Shown here piece after piece: positions 1 to 48,070 of a stretch of DNA of 64,000 bases. The first letter of the stretch is position 1. The number at the start of each line of letters is the position of its first letter. The stretch is from Minisyncoccota bacterium. GTDB taxonomy: Bacteria; Patescibacteriota; Minisyncoccia; Phycocordibacterales; UBA9973. The notes under the pieces were generated by a model. It ran no database searches. It was given only the letters and a program-made list of their open reading frames with translations, and was not told the DNA's origin. The stretch covers positions 9,100-73,099 of the forward strand of contig JBAYFP010000004.1 of the NCBI GenBank assembly GCA_041667145.1, given 5' to 3'. The translations under genes were made by a program, and so were the position numbers.

Positions 1-2086
1 GAAAAAATTGAGAGAGCAGATAGTTTTGTCGAAGAATAAAGCGCACAATATCGATATTTTGGTTGATAGTTTTGCAGTACATGAATTTACTAACAATAAA
101 GAGGGGGCCAGAATGAGATTGCCTGAAGCGTTAGAAAGGGCACTTCTAGAATCTGATGGATTGGTGACGATTTCTTTTGATGTTCCAGCTCAGCATGGTG
201 TTTTTTCTCGGGTCCTCGAGGCAAAGCCCCAGACCAGCTCGAAAAAGCATCATGCTGAGCCTGCACTTTTGGAAGAATTTATAATGTCTTCAAAGTTTGC
301 TTGCAAAAATGATGGTTTTTCTTTTCCAGAAATCGAACCACGTCTTTTTTCTTTCAATTCTCCTTATGGAGCTTGCGAAGTTTGTCATGGATTAGGTTCG
401 AAATATTTCATGGGTGATGAACCATGTGACGCTTGTCATGGTGCACGTTTACGACCTGAAGCGTTGAATGTTTTTATATTTTCCAATTCGCCCCTGCCAA
501 GGGGAGAAAAGAAGAGGGGTCTAAATATTTTAGATATTAGCTCACTTTCTATTGCTGAAGCATCAGAATTTTTTAAAACATTAAAACTTTCTGAACAAGA
601 AAAAGAAATATCTCTTCCTGTTGTTCGTGAGATAGAGGCGCGACTTCAATTTATGTTGGATGTCGGGTTAGACTATTTACAACTTTCTCGAAAGGCAAAT
701 ACGCTCTCGGGAGGGGAGGCGCAACGTATTCGTCTAGCCTCTCAACTTGGTTCTAGGCTTGTCGGTGCTCTATATGTGTTGGATGAGCCTACTATTGGTC
801 TTCATCAGCGTGACAATGATCGCTTGATTAAAACCTTAGAAAACCTACGTGATTTGGGTAATACTATCTTAATAGTTGAACATGACGAGGATACTATTTA
901 TGCGTCTGATTATATAGTGGATATAGGTCCAAAGGCTGGAGTACATGGTGGTAATGTTATTGTCTCAGGATGGCTCGAAGAATTATTAACTGCAAAAAAG
1001 AATACAAATAATTCTAGGACACTTGCTTATCTTCGTGAAGAATTAAAAATAGAAATTCCAGAAAAACGTCGTACATCAAAAGGAGTACTACGAATAATTG
1101 GTGGAAAAGTTTTTAATATAAAAAATTTAAATGTTGACATACCTCTTGGGGTGATGACATCCATCACGGGTGTTTCTGGTTCTGGGAAAAGTTCTTTGAT
1201 GTATGAAATTTTATATAAAAATTTGCAAACACGATATGAACGTAAATATCGTACAGCTAAAGTTTTCAATTGTGCTTCATTTTCTGGTACTGAATATTTG
1301 TCACGAGCTATCCTCATTGATCAATCTCCCATAGGAAGAACGCCACGCTCTAACATAGCCACGTATACTGGGACGTTTACTCATATTCGTGATTTATTTG
1401 CAACGACTGAAGAAGCTCGACTTCGTGGATGGAAAGCAAACCGTTTTTCTTTCAATGTGAAAGGCGGACGTTGTGAAGCTTGTGAAGGTAATGGCCAAAT
1501 AGCTGTAGAGATGCATTTTTTACCAACAGTTTATGTCACTTGTGATGTTTGTAATGGTAAACGTTTTGATAAAGAAACACTTACAGTAAAATATAAGAAG
1601 AAAAATATTTATGAAGTGCTTCGTATGACCGTAGAGGAAGGTTTAGTTTTTTTTAAAGATATTCCAGCTATTTCTGACAGGTTGCACACGCTTATGGGGG
1701 TAGGGCTAGGATACTTAGAACTTGGTCAATCTGCGACAACTCTTTCAGGAGGTGAGGCACAACGTGTAAAGATTTCTAGTGAACTCTACCGTCCACATTT
1801 AGAAAAAACTATCTATCTTCTCGACGAGCCTACTGTAGGCTTACATTATGATGATGTAGTAAAGCTTCTCGAAGTATTAAATAAGCTTGTTTCAAAAGGA
1901 AATACTGTAGTTTTGATTGAACATAACCTTGATATTATCAAAAATTGCGATTATGTTATAGATGTCGGTCCTGAGGGAGGGGTAAATGGGGGAAATTTAG
2001 TAGCTAAAGGTACTCCTGAGGAAATAGCTAATAATCCTAAGAGTTATACTGGGAAATATCTTAAAAGAGCCTTACGAACCAAGTAG
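1..2086 (+). CDS. uvrA: Excinuclease ABC subunit A, C-terminal ~690 aa; the 5' end lies upstream of the window
   Basis: Two ABC signature motifs (LSGGEAQRIRLA, LSGGEAQRVKIS). Zinc-finger CxxC pairs (CEVCHGLG, CDACHG, CEACEGNG, CDVCNG). Walker A GVSGSGKSSL. The reading frame is open to base 1. Confidence 0.92.
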   Translation, partial: KKLREQIVLSKNKAHNIDILVDSFAVHEFTNNKEGARMRLPEALERALLESDGLVTISFDVPAQHGVFSRVLEAKPQTSSKKHHAEPALLEEFIMSSKFACKNDGFSFPEIEPRLFSFNSPYGACEVCHGLGSKYFMGDEPCDACHGARLRPEALNVFIFSNSPLPRGEKKRGLNILDISSLSIAEASEFFKTLKLSEQEKEISLPVVREIEARLQFMLDVGLDYLQLSRKANTLSGGEAQRIRLASQLGSRLVGALYVLDEPTIGLHQRDNDRLIKTLENLRDLGNTILIVEHDEDTIYASDYIVDIGPKAGVHGGNVIVSGWLEELLTAKKNTNNSRTLAYLREELKIEIPEKRRTSKGVLRIIGGKVFNIKNLNVDIPLGVMTSITGVSGSGKSSLMYEILYKNLQTRYERKYRTAKVFNCASFSGTEYLSRAILIDQSPIGRTPRSNIATYTGTFTHIRDLFATTEEARLRGWKANRFSFNVKGGRCEACEGNGQIAVEMHFLPTVYVTCDVCNGKRFDKETLTVKYKKKNIYEVLRMTVEEGLVFFKDIPAISDRLHTLMGVGLGYLELGQSATTLSGGEAQRVKISSELYRPHLEKTIYLLDEPTVGLHYDDVVKLLEVLNKLVSKGNTVVLIEHNLDIIKNCDYVIDVGPEGGVNGGNLVAKGTPEEIANNPKSYTGKYLKRALRTK

Positions 2087-2112: not shown

Positions 2113-3507
2113 ATGGATGTTAAATACTTTAAAAAACTTAAAATTCCAGACAAATCTGGTGTTTATATTTTTAAAAAAAAGAATGAGATTTTGTATGTTG
2201 GTAAAGCGACGTCATTGAAAGATAGAGTAAAAAGTTATTTTGGGAAAGACTTAATAGAGTCCAGGGGGCCAATTTTAGTGGATTTGATTTTTAAAGCAGA
2301 TAAAATAGACTGGCAGGAAACTGATAGTGTTTTAGAAGCTCTTATTTTAGAGGCAGTTTTAATAAAAAAGTATCAGCCGAAATACAATACAAAAGAAAAA
2401 TCAGATAAAAGTTTCAATTATGTGTGTATTACTAAACCTGCCCGCAATGCTTTGCATAGCGATGCAGGCGGGGAAAAATTACCTAGAGTAATTATAAAAA
2501 GAGGGAAGGAAATACTTCAGGGACAGAATAATTTTCGAAACTGCGCCCTCGGAGACAAAAGGACAGGGGACCCACATGTTTCTAAAAATCATTCTGTTCC
2601 TTTCGCTAATACATTTGGCCCGTATCCAAATGGTGGCCAGTTGCGGGAAGCACTGAAAATAGTTCGTAGGATTTTTCCATTTTTGGACGAAAAAAGTAAA
2701 AATTATTTGGAATTTTATAGACAAATAAATTTAGTGCCAGATTTAAATGATCAAAAAATGTATTTACAAAATATAAAAAATATAAAATTATTTTTTTCTG
2801 GTAAAAAACAACAGATTTTTAGAAATTTAAGAAAAGAAATGAAAGAATATGCAAAAAAAAGAGAATTTGAAAAAGCTGGCGAAATAAAAAGACAACTTTT
2901 TGCTCTCAAACATATAAATGATGTGGCGTTGATAAAAAATAGTGGAAATTCGATTTTGAAGCAAAATGTTCTCGAGCGAACCCTTGGTAGGAGCGACGGC
3001 GACGGACAGAGGAAATTTTCAACAGAAAATTTTCGTGGTGAATCCGAGAATAGTTTGCGAAGGGATCGAATTGAAGCTTATGATATTGCGCACATGTCTG
3101 GCGAAAACATGGTTGGGGTTATGGTAGTTTTAGAAAACGGAGAAATAGAGAAAAATGAGTATAGGAAGTTTAAAATAAAAACACAAACAGATGCAAATGA
3201 CACAGGAGCTTTAAAAGAGGTGTTAGAAAGACGTTTTGCTCATCCTGAATGGCGATACCCGAAGCTTATAGTAGTAGATGGAGGGATAGCTCAGATTAAT
3301 ACAGCAAAGGCGATTTTGATGAAAATTGGCTTAAAAATAGGGGTTGTTTCTGTATTAAAAGATGAGCATCACAGACCAAAAAAAATCATGGGGAATAAAG
3401 AATTTGTCCAAAAATATGAGAGAGAAATCTTACTTGCGAACAGTGAAGCTCATAGGTTTGCTATCATTTATCATAAAAAAATGCGTTCGAAGAACTTTTT
3501 GAAATAA
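2113..3507 (+). CDS. uvrC: Excinuclease ABC subunit C (GIY-YIG nuclease, UVR domain, RNase-H-like endonuclease domain). At 464 aa it is short; the C-terminal HhH region appears absent.
   Basis: N-terminal GIY-YIG motif (SGVYIFKK...ILYVGKATSLKDRVKSYF). UVR motif (FEKAGEIKRQLFAL). Conserved EAYDIAHMSGE nuclease core. Sits immediately downstream of uvrA. Confidence 0.82.
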   Translation: MDVKYFKKLKIPDKSGVYIFKKKNEILYVGKATSLKDRVKSYFGKDLIESRGPILVDLIFKADKIDWQETDSVLEALILEAVLIKKYQPKYNTKEKSDKSFNYVCITKPARNALHSDAGGEKLPRVIIKRGKEILQGQNNFRNCALGDKRTGDPHVSKNHSVPFANTFGPYPNGGQLREALKIVRRIFPFLDEKSKNYLEFYRQINLVPDLNDQKMYLQNIKNIKLFFSGKKQQIFRNLRKEMKEYAKKREFEKAGEIKRQLFALKHINDVALIKNSGNSILKQNVLERTLGRSDGDGQRKFSTENFRGESENSLRRDRIEAYDIAHMSGENMVGVMVVLENGEIEKNEYRKFKIKTQTDANDTGALKEVLERRFAHPEWRYPKLIVVDGGIAQINTAKAILMKIGLKIGVVSVLKDEHHRPKKIMGNKEFVQKYEREILLANSEAHRFAIIYHKKMRSKNFLK

Positions 3508-31232: not shown

Positions 31233-31340
31233 GCCCACCACATAGGTAGTGACCGAAGTCACTCATATCCGTTTCCAGATACGGCAGATCGTGCGACCCC
31301 ATATGATGGGTTCTTTATGCACGATCTGACTAACTTTCAC
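31233..31340. other. GC-rich, highly structured intergenic patch inside the AT-rich island; candidate ncRNA or recombination/att site
   Basis: Nested inverted repeats: GTGACCGAAGTCAC; CCGTTTCCAGATACGG; GATCGTGCGA-CCCATATGATGGG-TTCTTTAT-GCACGATC. Confidence 0.25.
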
Positions 31341-31467
31341 CATGCCTTTATTCCTAAAGGTTTAGGCTACTTAAACTATTAACTTGTAAAGAAATTATAC
31401 CTTATTTTTTAAGGTCGCACCATATTAGCTCACATTTAAATATTTGTGTAGTCGAGTTATCAACAGC

Positions 31468-43601: not shown

Positions 43602-43913
43602 ATGAATTTTAATTTAAAGTTTTTAAAAAAGAAAAAAAAGTTTAGAAAGGGGGGTTCGGGGATAAAACCAGACCTTTATTGGAGATATATTCTTTGCATG
43701 ACATTTGCGTTAGTTTTGATTTTTTGTATTTTTGGTTTTTATTTTTTTATGGAGATAAATAAAGAGTCAGTCTCTTTATTCCCTGGTGTCAGTGGAAAGG
43801 AAACAATAAAAAAAGAAAGGATTGATAAAGTATTAGAATATTTTAAAGAACGTGAAAAAAAGTCTGTTGAAATAATAAATTCTCCAGCACTCATTATTGA
43901 CCCATCGTTGTAA
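43602..43913 (+). CDS. Small membrane protein, possibly pilus-associated
   Basis: 103 aa with one TM helix. Confidence 0.4.
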   Translation: MNFNLKFLKKKKKFRKGGSGIKPDLYWRYILCMTFALVLIFCIFGFYFFMEINKESVSLFPGVSGKETIKKERIDKVLEYFKEREKKSVEIINSPALIIDPSL

Positions 43914-43940
43914 AAATGCTAATTTAAATAGGTATTTAAT

Positions 43941-44013
43941 GCGCGGTTAGCTCAGTTGGTAGAGCGCTTCATTTACACTGAAGATGTCGGGGGTTCGAGC
44001 CCTCCACCGCGCA
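43941..44013 (+). tRNA. tRNA-Val (anticodon UAC)
   Basis: GCGCGGTTAGCTCAGTTGGTAGAGCGCTTCATTTACACTGAAGATGTCGGGGGTTCGAGCCCTCCACCGCGCA. Anticodon stem CTTCA/TGAAG with loop TTTACAC. Confidence 0.85.
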
Positions 44014-44039
44014 CACCCACGCTTATGGCGGGGCAAGTA

Positions 44040-44111
44040 GCCCTCGTAGTTCAATGGATAGAACAAGGCTCTTCTAAGGCCTTGATGTAGGTTCGATTCC
44101 TACCGAGGGCA
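44040..44111 (+). tRNA. tRNA-Arg (anticodon UCU)
   Basis: GCCCTCGTAGTTCAATGGATAGAACAAGGCTCTTCTAAGGCCTTGATGTAGGTTCGATTCCTACCGAGGGCA. Anticodon loop CTTCTAA. Confidence 0.85.
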
Positions 44112-44117
44112 CACACA

Positions 44118-44897
44118 ATGAAAATTGAGGTTTTATATGAAGATAAAGATATTTTAGCTATAGATAAGCCGTCTGGTATTTTGGTACACCCCGTACCAGA
44201 ACAAGTTCGGTACGGGGCAGGTCCAGATAAAGAAACTGTTATAGACATATTTAAGAAAAAATATCCCAAACTAGAAATCGTGCATAGATTGGATAAAGAA
44301 ACTTCCGGTGTTTTACTTTTGGCAAAAAATAAAAAAGCACATGAGTTTTTAAAAGATCAATTCAAGAACAGAGAAATAAAAAAAACTTATAATGCTGTCG
44401 TTTCAGGGAATGTAAAAAATGATCATGCCACAATAAATAAACCGATAGGCAGAAGTCCAAAAGATTTTCGTAGACGTCTCGCTGGGCGTGGAGTGAGGGG
44501 GGAACTTCGTGAAGCTATCACTGAGTACAGAGTTTTGAAAAGGTTTGAAACGCAAGCGGAGCATCATAAGATTTTTTATGTGCGAGGGTCCCAACCCGTA
44601 CTCGGGGAAGGGCGCAGTGCTAAAAAATCTTATGATGCTCCGCTGAAGTTTACCTACCTAGAAATTCATCCTAAAACTGGTAGGACACATCAGATCCGTG
44701 TTCATATGAAATTTATAAATCACCCAGTAGCTTGTGATTCTTTGTATAATCCAGATGGTCCATGTTTAGAAGGGTTCAAAAGACTAGCTCTTCACGCGAA
44801 ATCCATAGAGTTCAAAGATCTCAAAGGTAAAATAATAAAAGTGGAATCACTGTTACCGAAAGAATTCAAGAAAATTTTGTTACTAAAAGATAAATAA
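44118..44897 (+). CDS. RluA-family pseudouridine synthase; contains a ~29-aa insertion encoded by a palindromic element
   Basis: LAIDKPSGILVHP, HRLDKETSGVLLLAKN (catalytic Asp), TGRTHQIRVH. Insertion …ETQAEHHKIFYVRGSQPVLGEGRSAKKSYDAP…. Confidence 0.85.
   Translation: MKIEVLYEDKDILAIDKPSGILVHPVPEQVRYGAGPDKETVIDIFKKKYPKLEIVHRLDKETSGVLLLAKNKKAHEFLKDQFKNREIKKTYNAVVSGNVKNDHATINKPIGRSPKDFRRRLAGRGVRGELREAITEYRVLKRFETQAEHHKIFYVRGSQPVLGEGRSAKKSYDAPLKFTYLEIHPKTGRTHQIRVHMKFINHPVACDSLYNPDGPCLEGFKRLALHAKSIEFKDLKGKIIKVESLLPKEFKKILLLKDK
44556..44643. repeat. 88-bp GC-rich palindromic element inserted in-frame in rluA (comparable to Rickettsia RPE-type in-frame palindromic elements)
   Basis: Perfect 15-bp terminal inverted repeats GCGGAGCATCATAAG / CTTATGATGCTCCGC. 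Inner AGATTTTTTA / TAAAAAATCT. Contains CCCAACCCGTACTCGGGGAAGGG. Confidence 0.55.
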
Positions 44898-45182
44898 AAA
44901 AAGGAATATTTCTATCCCTTTTTCATAACTTCATAATAAATTGGCTTAAACTTCCCAAAAGGGAAGCTTTCCTTCGCCCTTTCTTTCCATTTTTTTACCT
45001 GTGAACGGGCTTCTTTTTTATCTTTACATTTCTTGATGTAAAGTGTCCCATTCACGTTTAAAATAACTAGAATCATAACTACTCCTTTATATTTATAAAT
45101 TCAAAAGAAATAATAATGCGTGTCTTTTTTGAATTTACACCCCGTAATAGCAAAAGTCAAAATAATGTATAATATATGAGTA

Positions 45183-46886
45183 GTGGATACAGAAACTAAA
45201 AATTGCCAAAATTGCAAGAAAGACTTTACAATAGAGCCGGAAGATTTTAAATTTTATGAAAAAATAAACGTGCCAGCACCTACATGGTGTCCAGAATGTC
45301 GTGCTATGCGGCGTTTTTCTTTTATGAATGTTTGGAGTCTTTATAAAAGAATTTGTGCTAAATGTGGAGGTGATACTTTATCAGTTTATTCTTTAGATAA
45401 GCCTAATATTGTGTATTGTAACCCTTGTTGGTGGGGTGATTCTTGGGATGGCAGGGAATACGGAATGGATTATGATCCCACTAGATCTTTTTTTGATCAA
45501 CTATATGAGTTGTTTTTAAAAACACCATGGCAAGCTCTTGATAATGAATATGTTAGTAATAAAAATAGTAAATATGTGAATGGTGTTGCCTATCAAAAAG
45601 ATTGTTATATGAATTTTTGGGCAGATTTTTGTGAAAATGTTTTTTATTCATCTTATGAAAATCATTTGAAGGATTCTGTTGATTGTTTGAGAATGATCGA
45701 TTCAGAACTTTGCTATGAGTCCATAGGGTGCAACAAATGTTATCGCGCATTCTTTTCAGAAGAATGTGATTCTTGCACGGATGTTTGGTTTTCACGTGCT
45801 TGTTCTGGATTAGTGAATTGTTTCGGCTGTATAAATTTAAGAAATAAAAGTTATTGCATCTGGAATGAACAATATACCCGTGAAGATTATTTTAAAAAAT
45901 TAAAAGAGTTTTCTATTGATTCTAGAAAGATGTTAGATCAGTTAAGAAAAACTGCTTTTGAATTTTGGATGAAATATCCGAATAGATTTTACATTGGTAA
46001 TAGTCTAAATGTAAATGTTTCTGGGAACTACATATATGAATCAAAAAATACCCACGATTCATATCTTGTTTTATCTGTAGAGGATTCTCGTTTTGTTCAA
46101 TTTGTCAGTGTGGCTTCCACTAAAGGTTGTTATGATTATACTGGTTGGGGAAACGGAGTAGAAAAAATTTATGAGTCTTCGGTTGTAGGAGAAGGAGCTA
46201 ATAACATTAGGTTTTCTCATCAATGCTGGCCCGATGTCTTAGATATAGAATATTCTATTTATGCTAACGCTTGCAAGAATGTGTTTGGTTGTGTCAATCT
46301 CAAAAAGAAAAAATATTGTATCTTAAATAAAGAATATACAAAAGAGGAATACGAAAAACTTAAGAACAAAATCATAGAAGATATGAAAAAGAATCCATAT
46401 ATAGATGAAAAAGGGAGGGTTTGGGCTTATGGAGAATTTTTGCCATTGAAATTTGCACCTTTCGCTTACAATGAGACGATTGCAGGTAATTTTTTTCCAA
46501 TGACAGAGGAGGAGGCTTTGAATAAAGGTTTTAAATGGCAGGAGAGTAAAGAAAATGAGTATAAAATTACAAAAAAAACAGAAAGTTTACCCGATACTAT
46601 ATTAGAAACAGAAGATTCAATTTTGAATGATGTTTTTGCTTGCTCGTCGTGTGATAGGGCTTATCGTTTTACTTTGGGTGAATTAAATTTAATGAAAAAA
46701 CTCTCTTTACCTCTTCCTCGAGAATGTTTTAATTGTAGACAAAGTTTTCGTTTGACTCGTGTGAACTTACCTAAATTATATGAAAGAGATTGTCAAAAAT
46801 GCGGGAATAAGATAAAAACTTCTTATGCTCCTGACAGACCTGAGATTGTTTATTGTGTTAAATGTTACCAGCAAGAATTCGCTTAA
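45183..46886 (+). CDS. Cysteine-rich multi-zinc-ribbon protein, unknown function (paralog B); apparent GTG start
   Basis: 567 aa. Aligns end to end with 3632..5347 (CQNCKKDFTIEPEDFKFYEKINVPAPTWCPECR… / …SYAPDRPEIVYCVKCYQQE). TGTATAAT extended -10 lies 12 nt upstream. Confidence 0.8.
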   Translation: MDTETKNCQNCKKDFTIEPEDFKFYEKINVPAPTWCPECRAMRRFSFMNVWSLYKRICAKCGGDTLSVYSLDKPNIVYCNPCWWGDSWDGREYGMDYDPTRSFFDQLYELFLKTPWQALDNEYVSNKNSKYVNGVAYQKDCYMNFWADFCENVFYSSYENHLKDSVDCLRMIDSELCYESIGCNKCYRAFFSEECDSCTDVWFSRACSGLVNCFGCINLRNKSYCIWNEQYTREDYFKKLKEFSIDSRKMLDQLRKTAFEFWMKYPNRFYIGNSLNVNVSGNYIYESKNTHDSYLVLSVEDSRFVQFVSVASTKGCYDYTGWGNGVEKIYESSVVGEGANNIRFSHQCWPDVLDIEYSIYANACKNVFGCVNLKKKKYCILNKEYTKEEYEKLKNKIIEDMKKNPYIDEKGRVWAYGEFLPLKFAPFAYNETIAGNFFPMTEEEALNKGFKWQESKENEYKITKKTESLPDTILETEDSILNDVFACSSCDRAYRFTLGELNLMKKLSLPLPRECFNCRQSFRLTRVNLPKLYERDCQKCGNKIKTSYAPDRPEIVYCVKCYQQEFA

Positions 46887-48035: not shown

Positions 48036-48070
48036 TGTAACCCCGTTCTAGGATCTAGGACGGGGTTATC
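48036..48070 (+). terminator. Stem-loop terminator
   Basis: AACCCCGTTCTAG-GAT-CTAGGACGGGGTT followed by a T-rich tract. Confidence 0.5.

Follow-up and report, generated by a model that had tools for sequence, protein, structure and literature searches.

In a Paceibacteria bacterium of the candidate phyla radiation (CPR), a conserved enzyme gene contains an 88-bp palindrome (44556–44643) that leaves its reading frame open. The gene, rluA, encodes an RluA-family pseudouridine synthase and lies in a 64-kb stretch of contig JBAYFP010000004.1 (~33% G+C), which we refer to as the window. What is this insertion, how did it come to occupy coding sequence and what keeps it there? We favour one answer, which we consider probable: the rluA palindrome is one copy of a dispersed hairpin family in Paceibacteria (here family 1), a translated, selfish element akin to the Rickettsia palindromic elements (RPEs).

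The rluA insertion

The host open reading frame (ORF) is intact, and its match to PF00849 (E = 1.2e-30, Pfam) places the product in the RluA family; the exactly matching P0001 carries the name 'RluA family pseudouridine synthase, Candidatus Paceibacterota'. Two motifs, HRLD (catalytic) and HQIRVH, flank the insert, one on each side, both intact. An initial annotation had described an in-frame palindromic insertion of about 29 residues between conserved RluA motifs, and comparison with the empty-site orthologue L004 (...RF IEKKEK FTYLE...) bears this out, the window gene being longer by 87 nucleotides (nt), or 29 codons. The same annotation had described separate 15-bp outer and 10-bp inner inverted repeats; the palindrome is real, but these are parts of a single repeat that runs without mismatch over 23 bp (GCGGAGCATCATAAGATTTTTTA / TAAAAAATCTTATGATGCTCCGC). 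By an arithmetic estimate, a perfect 23-bp inverted repeat with a spacer of <50 nt is expected by chance well below 1e-5 times per 64 kb. The + strand of the element has a folding energy of −60.8 kcal/mol, against −26.0 ± 3.3 kcal/mol for dinucleotide shuffles (z = −10.7; 0/200 shuffles as good), and is the most stable 110-nt stretch of the window.

At the protein level, residues ~146–176 are unmatched in the solved RluD, RluC and RluA structures, whose PDB alignments stop at ~145 and restart at ~177. The AlphaFold model of the window RluA (predicted local distance difference test, pLDDT, 71.8 overall and <50 at residues 151–170) shows the insert as a low-confidence loop between β-strands 134–145 and 176–185, in agreement with a surface loop, a possibility that the initial annotation had raised. 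The insert would be read through as a probably disordered loop of 29 residues, with the enzyme motifs left intact.

A dispersed family with a common core

The core pattern CCCTTCCNNGAGTACNNGNNGGGAC matched at least 119 metagenome stretches, with 0 matches in viral contigs. Copy counts were taken among the matches listed, after a few GC-rich chance matches had been dropped; ~89 are genuine, unique hairpin-bearing copies. Most of them (78/89, 88%) are inside frames free of stops over 150 codons or more, 64 in orientation B (the pattern strand as sense) and 14 in orientation A (the opposite, as in the window rluA), and at least five are intergenic. With the insert masked, the host proteins fall into 12 unrelated families, so that the same core occurs in 11 besides RluA: RluA itself (several sites), an FAD-linked oxidase (two sites), LeuRS, Pol III δ′, UvrC, UvrD, a peptide release factor, an S-adenosylmethionine-dependent (SAM) methyltransferase, LigA, a NusB–NUDIX fusion, PolA and UvrA (ten identified by Pfam, RluA by Pfam PF00849 and UvrA by sequence). 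In rluA, holB (Pol III δ′), uvrC and uvrD the same site is found occupied in either orientation. A covariance model built from 70 copies (R1) scores the rluA element at 98.3 bits (E = 7e-18) and, among 100 loci, detects a second copy in at least 12.

A copy is built in three layers: a GC-rich core of ~34 nt (consensus on the A strand, G.GGGTCCC.CC..GTACTC..GGAAGGG...AG), a semi-conserved AT-rich stem (AAAATTTTT / AAAAATTTT) and an outer stem of 8–27 bp that is unique to its site, giving elements of roughly 80–100 bp across the family. The arms are specific to the site and the core is the conserved part; further copies of the 15-bp arm, for which the initial annotation had suggested a search, do not occur in the window. 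Its proposed link to an 'intergenic ACGGG hairpin family' also fails: the window holds one CCCGT...ACGGG hairpin, and the 13-nt core has no other copy there. The window does hold a second family-1 copy, in uvrC, which the 13-nt core search missed because its apex has diverged. This copy scores 36.4 bits with R1 (E = 5e-5); it keeps its arms and GTGGGTCCC / AGGGCGCAG, the apical GTACTC part has been replaced, and it stands at the same UvrC site as copies in L109, L115, L144, L151 and L156.

One subfamily (L118, L106, L133, L155, L192, L197 and similar) consists mostly of intergenic or short-ORF copies and, unlike the intragenic copies, has similar arms (G[CT]TTCTT[CG]C) and flanks (AGCTTCG... 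/ ...CTTCGC). The shared arms and flanks might represent a longer 'master' form, belong to the element or be a target motif.

Reading frame

The length of the insert is a multiple of three and the frame used is stop-free; the rluA insert and a second, in uvrA (below), are exactly 87 nt each. Phase is strongly biased: 49/54 B-oriented copies use the phase giving ...LP(R/G)V(R/P)GGT... and 8/9 A-oriented copies the phase ...RGS.PVLGEG..., and the AT-rich stems read as QNF/KNF in both orientations. Stop codons as the only cause of the orientation and phase bias were considered and rejected, the remaining frames being open in 20–60% of copies; likely causes are peptide tolerance (Gly/Pro/Ser-rich loops) together with common descent of orthologous copies.

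These frames bear on the idea of an intervening sequence removed at the RNA level, in which cleavage at the base of the hairpin and rejoining of the mRNA would leave mature RluA without the insert. The extreme stability of the hairpin and the coincidence of its base with the insertion boundaries fit such a scheme. Excision would, however, free the insert from constraints on frame and stops, yet both 87-nt inserts keep the frame, 88% of copies keep long ORFs open, and a single phase dominates the B copies while the other phases often contain stops. We therefore regard RNA-level removal as highly improbable.

Orthologous RluA loops

We surveyed the 120 best RluA homologues (63–77% identical, 219 to 290 residues). 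Their loop holds the element in orientation A in at least 20 and in orientation B in at least 37, is empty in ~34 and carries other inserts in ~29. A-type peptides resemble that of the window (...FYARGSQPVLGEGRSAKK...), B-type peptides read ...NFSSCALPRVRGGTLGDKNF... or variants of it, and the DNA of seven orthologous loci identifies the B-type peptide as the same core read from the opposite strand. The cores of L086 (B) and L087 (A) are 93% identical and flipped relative to rluA; both are stop-free, of the same length and at the same RluA codons. The loop state of the nearest neighbour agrees in 44/120 cases against 0.24 expected by chance, by a rough neighbour measure. These observations indicate rapid gain, loss, inversion or replacement at one tolerated RluA loop. 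A contig search with the RluA alignment returned distant RluAs only (≤41% identity), and loci L005–L084 were left out.

The recurrence of an insert at one loop in many orthologues would also be expected of an ancestral RluA segment, and a palindrome might be an assembly artefact, in either case without significance at the nucleic-acid level. We give this reading practically no credence. Unrelated peptides are encoded by opposite strands of the same DNA core, the inserts are palindromic at the DNA level in every orthologue examined (a protein segment free of palindromic DNA, which would mark an ancestral insertion, was not encountered), and the core recurs in the 11 other gene families and in roughly a hundred other contigs. 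The same gene and element are present, identical, in two contigs, one of 90.9 kb from ENA (MEGAHIT) and one from Logan (run SRR6484324); misassembly is unlikely because these two assemblies come from different pipelines.

Near-identical elements in both orientations at the same RluA codons of different species, as in L086 and L087, also call to mind an intragenic inverton: recombination at the 23-bp repeats would flip the 42-bp core among cells of one population, and ~14 RluA residues would be recoded as a phase-variable switch. Intragenic invertons are documented in other bacteria (PMC10028968). Here, however, the orientation differences are seen between species only, the two encoded peptides have no conserved function, and what the elements form is a family, dispersed and with covarying arms, rather than a switch specific to one gene. 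For recombinase-mediated looping, moreover, an invertible segment of 42 bp is very short. Nor did an invertase stand out in the gene tables of a few rluA loci, read without a systematic search for one. Taken together, a switch of this kind is very unlikely.

Conservation is unevenly spread within the element. Among the window, L001 and L002 the 42-nt core is 95–100% identical and the arms differ at five or more positions. All arm differences of L001 are compensated (GAGCATCATAAG / CTTATGATGCTC versus GAACCCCAGAAG / CTTCTGGGGTTC), as is a change in its apical stem (CCCG/CGGG to CCGG/CCGG); in L002 two mismatches remain at the outer end of the arms. Core identity between orthologues, normalized for orientation, averages 0.79 (0.95–1.0 inside a subfamily), compared with 0.49 for third positions at conserved residues of the flanking rluA codons.

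Covariation and strand preference

Stem pairing is kept up by compensatory change. In an ungapped alignment of 70 unique copies in A-strand orientation (A2), scored over the outer stem, the AT-rich stem, a 4-bp inner stem and two apical stems, 85.6% of cells are paired against 63.8% in shuffles, double-sided changes number 722 against 271, and covariation scores 0.584 against 0.19 (≤0.186 in all slid controls). Columns 16–38 pair in >90% of copies, using all four Watson–Crick pair types. The invariant columns of these copies are G39, GTCCC (43–47), C50, GTACTC (53–58), GGAAGGG (61–67) and AG (71–72).

The two strands do not pair equally well: 94.2% of cells pair on the A strand versus 85.0% on the B strand. 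A U44·G67 wobble is invariant, and G43·U68 is present in half of the copies. In the variable arms of B-oriented intragenic copies, the A strand has 42 G·U pairs against 9 A·C mismatches, whereas A-oriented copies have 6 and 4, counts too small to decide; common ancestry of orthologous copies inflates these wobble counts. The A strand is antisense to the host mRNA in B-oriented copies and the mRNA-sense strand at the window rluA, and selection on mRNA structure is disfavoured as a general cause because of the antisense position in B-oriented copies. An asymmetry opposite to the wobble bias seen would be expected from the C-to-T bias usual for coding or leading strands. GC skew around the copies leaves replication and host-gene orientation fully confounded, the host coding strand always being the G-rich one.

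Such features would also suit a structured element that benefits its host. The core would be bound or processed by a trans-acting protein or RNA, acting on a single-stranded A-strand hairpin, either as a DNA hairpin or cruciform in replication or repair or as an RNA that is antisense in most copies, and would regulate or mark housekeeping genes; intragenic placement would follow from the near absence of intergenic space in tiny genomes, with translation as a tolerated side effect. Covarying stems around an invariant core are found in functional RNAs, conservation of the core exceeds that of synonymous sites, wobble pairs are concentrated on a single strand (the invariant U·G included), copies persist at orthologous sites in several genes, and 6 of the 12 host families are DNA replication or repair genes, which could hint at regulation. 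Against host benefit stand the empty site in about a quarter of RluA orthologues and the unrelated element families that occupy it in others, the occurrence of both orientations at the same sites, and the tolerance of decayed copies (the window uvrC copy, and L100 at FAD-oxidase site 1). No partner has been identified and no Rfam family matches: Rfam gave no match on the element at E ≤ 10 in 43900–45000, and none on it at the gathering threshold across the window. On balance we think host benefit unlikely as the explanation.

Cores shared within genomes, arms tied to sites

Orthologous copies have their outer arm ends in common; at FAD-oxidase site 1, for example, six contigs share TGGAAnC... 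/ ...GnTTCCA. Paralogous copies within one genome show the reverse, with unrelated arms (0.37–0.53 identity) and rare core variants in common. Both copies in L119 have an apical CAGG/CCTG where orthologues elsewhere have CCGG/CCGG; both copies in L181 carry GGGTGAAG; in L166 the core is identical at 62/62 positions between two old sites; and in L132 core identity between the copies is 0.89. This is concerted evolution of the core within genomes, for which gene conversion, or recurrent homing into hairpins already present, could be the cause.

Neither arm is present at the empty sites of rluA, uvrA and the FAD oxidase. The proposal that one arm is original host flank is unsupported, both arms being missing from these sites, and in a few copies the stem does run into conserved flanking codons. 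Two loci at FAD-oxidase site 1 look like snapshots of core loss and decay: in L147 the two arms remain without a core (...WQKNLK/NSLDFS...), and the copy in L100 has decayed and is still recognizable.

Other elements in the window

The coordinates of the elements discussed here and of neighbouring features are collected in Table 1. The uvrA hairpin (−46 kcal/mol) ranks second in the window for stability. Set against L157 and L130, whose UvrA site is empty, the inserted block is 87 nt, slightly wider than the palindrome. Blastn-short finds the core of this hairpin (CTCGGGTCCTCG...CCCAGACCAGCTCG) again, with arms specific to each site, in L109 (at the same UvrA site), L189 and L113; two such cores lie in opposite orientations in one ORF of L189. 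R1 gives this hairpin 19.8 bits only, and we treat it as a second family, with the architecture of family 1 and a different core.

Table 1. Positions of hairpin elements, their parts and neighbouring features in the 64-kb window
Feature	Position	Strand	Description
RluA-family pseudouridine synthase gene	44118–44897	+	259 aa, intact ORF; PF00849
Family-1 hairpin element	44556–44643	+	42-nt core between two 23-bp arms; A strand, the better-pairing one, is +
Inserted codons in rluA	44556–44642	+	Residues 147–175, AEHHKIFYVRGSQPVLGEGRSAKKSYDAP
Insert-spanning RluA peptide			IFYVRGSQPVLGEGR
Left arm	44556–44578	+	Outer part GCGGAGCATCATAAG, site-specific; inner part ATTTTTTA, semi-conserved AT-rich stem
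Right arm	44621–44643	+	Perfect complement of left arm
GC-rich conserved core	44579–44620	+	42 nt, TGTGCGAGGGTCCCAACCCGTACTCGGGGAAGGGCGCAGTGC; GGTCCC, GTACTC and GGAAGGG invariant family-wide
Apical stem of core	44595–44598 / 44603–44606	+	CCCG-TACT-CGGG, loop TACT
Maximal imperfect hairpin	44548–44651	+	31-nt arms, 90% complementary; extends into flanking host codons
Degenerate family-1 copy in uvrC	2504–2615	− (A strand)	In frame in uvrC 2113–3507
Family-2 hairpin in uvrA	186–262	+	In frame in ORF 8–2086; arms 188–207 / 241–260; core CTCGGGTCCTCGAGGCAAAGCCCCAGACCAGCTCG
Small GC-rich hairpin in rluA	44189–44217	+	Perfect 9 bp, CCCCGTACC / GGTACGGGG; encodes PVPEQVRYG
GC-rich island in uvrC	2434–2476	+	Peptide PARNALHSDAGGEKLP; from GC scan only
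GC-rich island in uvrA	683–747	+	Peptide SNSPLPRGEKKRGLN; from GC scan only
CCCGT...ACGGG hairpin	48042–48064	+	Sole one in window, CCCGTTCTAGGATCTAGGACGGG; no relation to rluA element seen
LOOT RNA (Rfam RF03000)	31248–31368	−	73.6 bits, above gathering score
tRNA-Val(TAC) and tRNA-Arg(TCT)	43941–44112	+	Immediately 5′ of rluA
Cysteine-rich protein gene	45183–46886	+	567 aa, many CxxC pairs; directly 3′ of rluA

Smaller inserts may form further families. The small GC-rich hairpin of rluA is present in some orthologues and not in others (HPDQKSKEKT instead); orthologue peptides (PV..RY versus PA..RC) suggest paired codon changes there, and L153 has a full family-1 element at this site. The two GC-rich islands inside the uvrC and uvrA ORFs may be other small insert families. 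Further recurrent insert peptides of RluA orthologues are SQADEPRGSAPRARGDSDP, PLLNKEGRNSSPPAKGE and SAPALRLKTKSGLAD. Those at fixed sites are SAPALRLKTKSGLAD after QF, SQA(G/D)EPRGSAPRARGDSDP and PLLNKEGRNSSPPAKGE, and carriers of the recurrent peptides include P0002, P0007, P0047, P0050, P0089 and P0120; P0012, P0056, P0069 and P0070; and P0075, P0094, P0098 and P0119. The SQADG...SAP...GDSDP type is also found in UvrC (L156) and UvrD (L101) host proteins. The recurrence of such peptides across RluA, UvrC and UvrD suggests additional element families.

As to the surroundings of rluA, the upstream tRNA-Arg gene ends 5 nt before the start codon, a gap that suggests co-transcription of rluA with the tRNA genes. 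The cysteine-rich protein, which has no Pfam hit in the locus gene tables, is kept 3′ of rluA in several relatives (L087 10806–12509; L088 7594–9297).

Discussion

How might such an element arise and spread? As selfish DNA, family 1 would persist wherever translation tolerates the insert. Gene conversion or homing-like copying may carry its cores from one hairpin to another already in place, spreading or renewing them, with the AT-rich stems serving as common homology for core exchange. Recombination between the arms could flip a core in place, and both orientations would occur at one site because of such flipping. The form under selection may be a single-stranded A-strand hairpin, of DNA or RNA.

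Several points weigh against this account. No transposase, nuclease or autonomous parent has been identified, complete genomes not having been scanned for a parent insertion sequence (IS), and filled and empty sites at rluA, uvrA and the FAD oxidase show no clear target-site duplication when compared. The account does not explain how each site comes by complementary arms of its own. Translation of the insert is deduced solely from frame conservation. Many copies are orthologous to each other, so that copy counts overstate independent events, and the ~14 second copies in 750 kb (~1 extra copy per 50 kb) come from loci chosen for holding a copy and are biased accordingly. Long persistence at orthologous sites, near-perfect stems and a core conserved above the synonymous level are unusual for junk and would fit a host function equally well, as could the share of replication and repair genes among the hosts. 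A more specific proposal, which we advance only tentatively, is that the elements, far from being passive relics of the RPE kind, are a new, conserved and translation-compatible class of hairpins. The hairpin, single-stranded and of one defined strand, would have its invariant GGTCCC / GTACTC / GGAAGGG core recognized by a trans-acting factor; this factor would copy the core from hairpin to hairpin inside a genome in a homing-like manner and might use the hairpins as functional sites in replication, repair and translation genes of CPR bacteria.

The selfish, RPE-like reading can be set against known repeat systems. RPEs are short stem-loop repeats that stand in frame in many conserved genes and are translated (Ogata et al. 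2000, as cited in PMC2229807 and PMC10969869). Family 1 shares with them palindromic structure, dispersal in a small AT-rich genome, in-frame insertion at fold-compatible positions and the coexistence of several families. RPEs are, however, longer (105–150 bp versus 88 bp here), belong to Rickettsiales and not Paceibacteria, and are conserved along their length, including terminal repeats of ~12 bp, whereas here conservation is confined to the core and AT-rich stem and the outer arms are site-unique and covarying. The RPE analogy drawn by the initial annotation thus holds for dispersed repeats in ORFs of many unrelated conserved genes; it does not extend to both orientations or other families at one site, covarying stems or cores homogenized within genomes, which by description set these elements apart. 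Family 1 works like the RPEs but is not a member: it is a dispersed palindrome in frame, of a different lineage and length.

Other short palindromes share some of these features. ERIC, the 107-bp Correia/NEMIS, YPAL and the Coxiella QMITE are non-autonomous, hairpin-forming, multi-copy elements of ~100 bp with frames that fuse to host ORFs (PMC2229807, PMC10969869). Intragenic MITEs (miniature transposable elements with inverted repeats) thus resemble family 1 in size, hairpin formation, copy number and open frames, but MITEs have family-wide terminal inverted repeats, where ours have outer arms unrelated between sites, and usually show TA or other target-site duplications and a related IS; they are also mainly intergenic, compared with ~88% intragenic copies here. 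Repetitive extragenic palindromic (REP) sequences measure 20–40 bp and are marked at the stem foot by a conserved tag, GTAG or CGTC (PMC3733652). REPs and their paired forms (REPINs), served by REP-associated tyrosine transposases (RAYTs), share with family 1 GC-rich hairpins, a single-stranded form thought to be active and copies alike within a genome; REPs are extragenic, however, and in family 1 the foot of the stem varies, conservation is apical and the copies lie inside genes, so that it is not a REP family. GC clusters and double-hairpin elements of fungal mitochondria are likewise GC-rich mobile palindromes in AT-rich genomes, sometimes in frame (yeast var1); the likeness is one of description, and compartment and lineage are different. 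Intragenic invertons (PMC10028968) also place inverted repeats within a coding region around a segment that is found, and open, in both orientations, but they are gene-specific, enzyme-mediated switches with longer segments, and family 1 is a dispersed repeat family.

In the literature searched we found no description of these elements in CPR bacteria, and family 1 is apparently undescribed, one part of what is apparently a widespread phenomenon of several families. In-frame palindromes in essential genes have been treated as a Rickettsia peculiarity, with scattered MITE cases elsewhere; here they occur independently, and in several families, in the CPR, one of the largest and least understood bacterial groups. 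A 2026 survey found the highest density of perfect inverted repeats of all phyla in CPR phyla and left the repeats uncharacterized (PMC13155455); hairpin elements of the kind described here may account for part of it. They would also explain part of the length variation among CPR orthologues (219 to 290 residues in RluA), and they bear on the annotation, alignment and phylogeny of CPR proteins. Covarying arms specific to each site, a homogenized core and a strand preference in wobble pairs together pose a testable question of how hairpin DNA is maintained and copied, and the inserts mark out, in essential enzymes, a naturally occurring set of surface loops that can accommodate ~29 extra residues.

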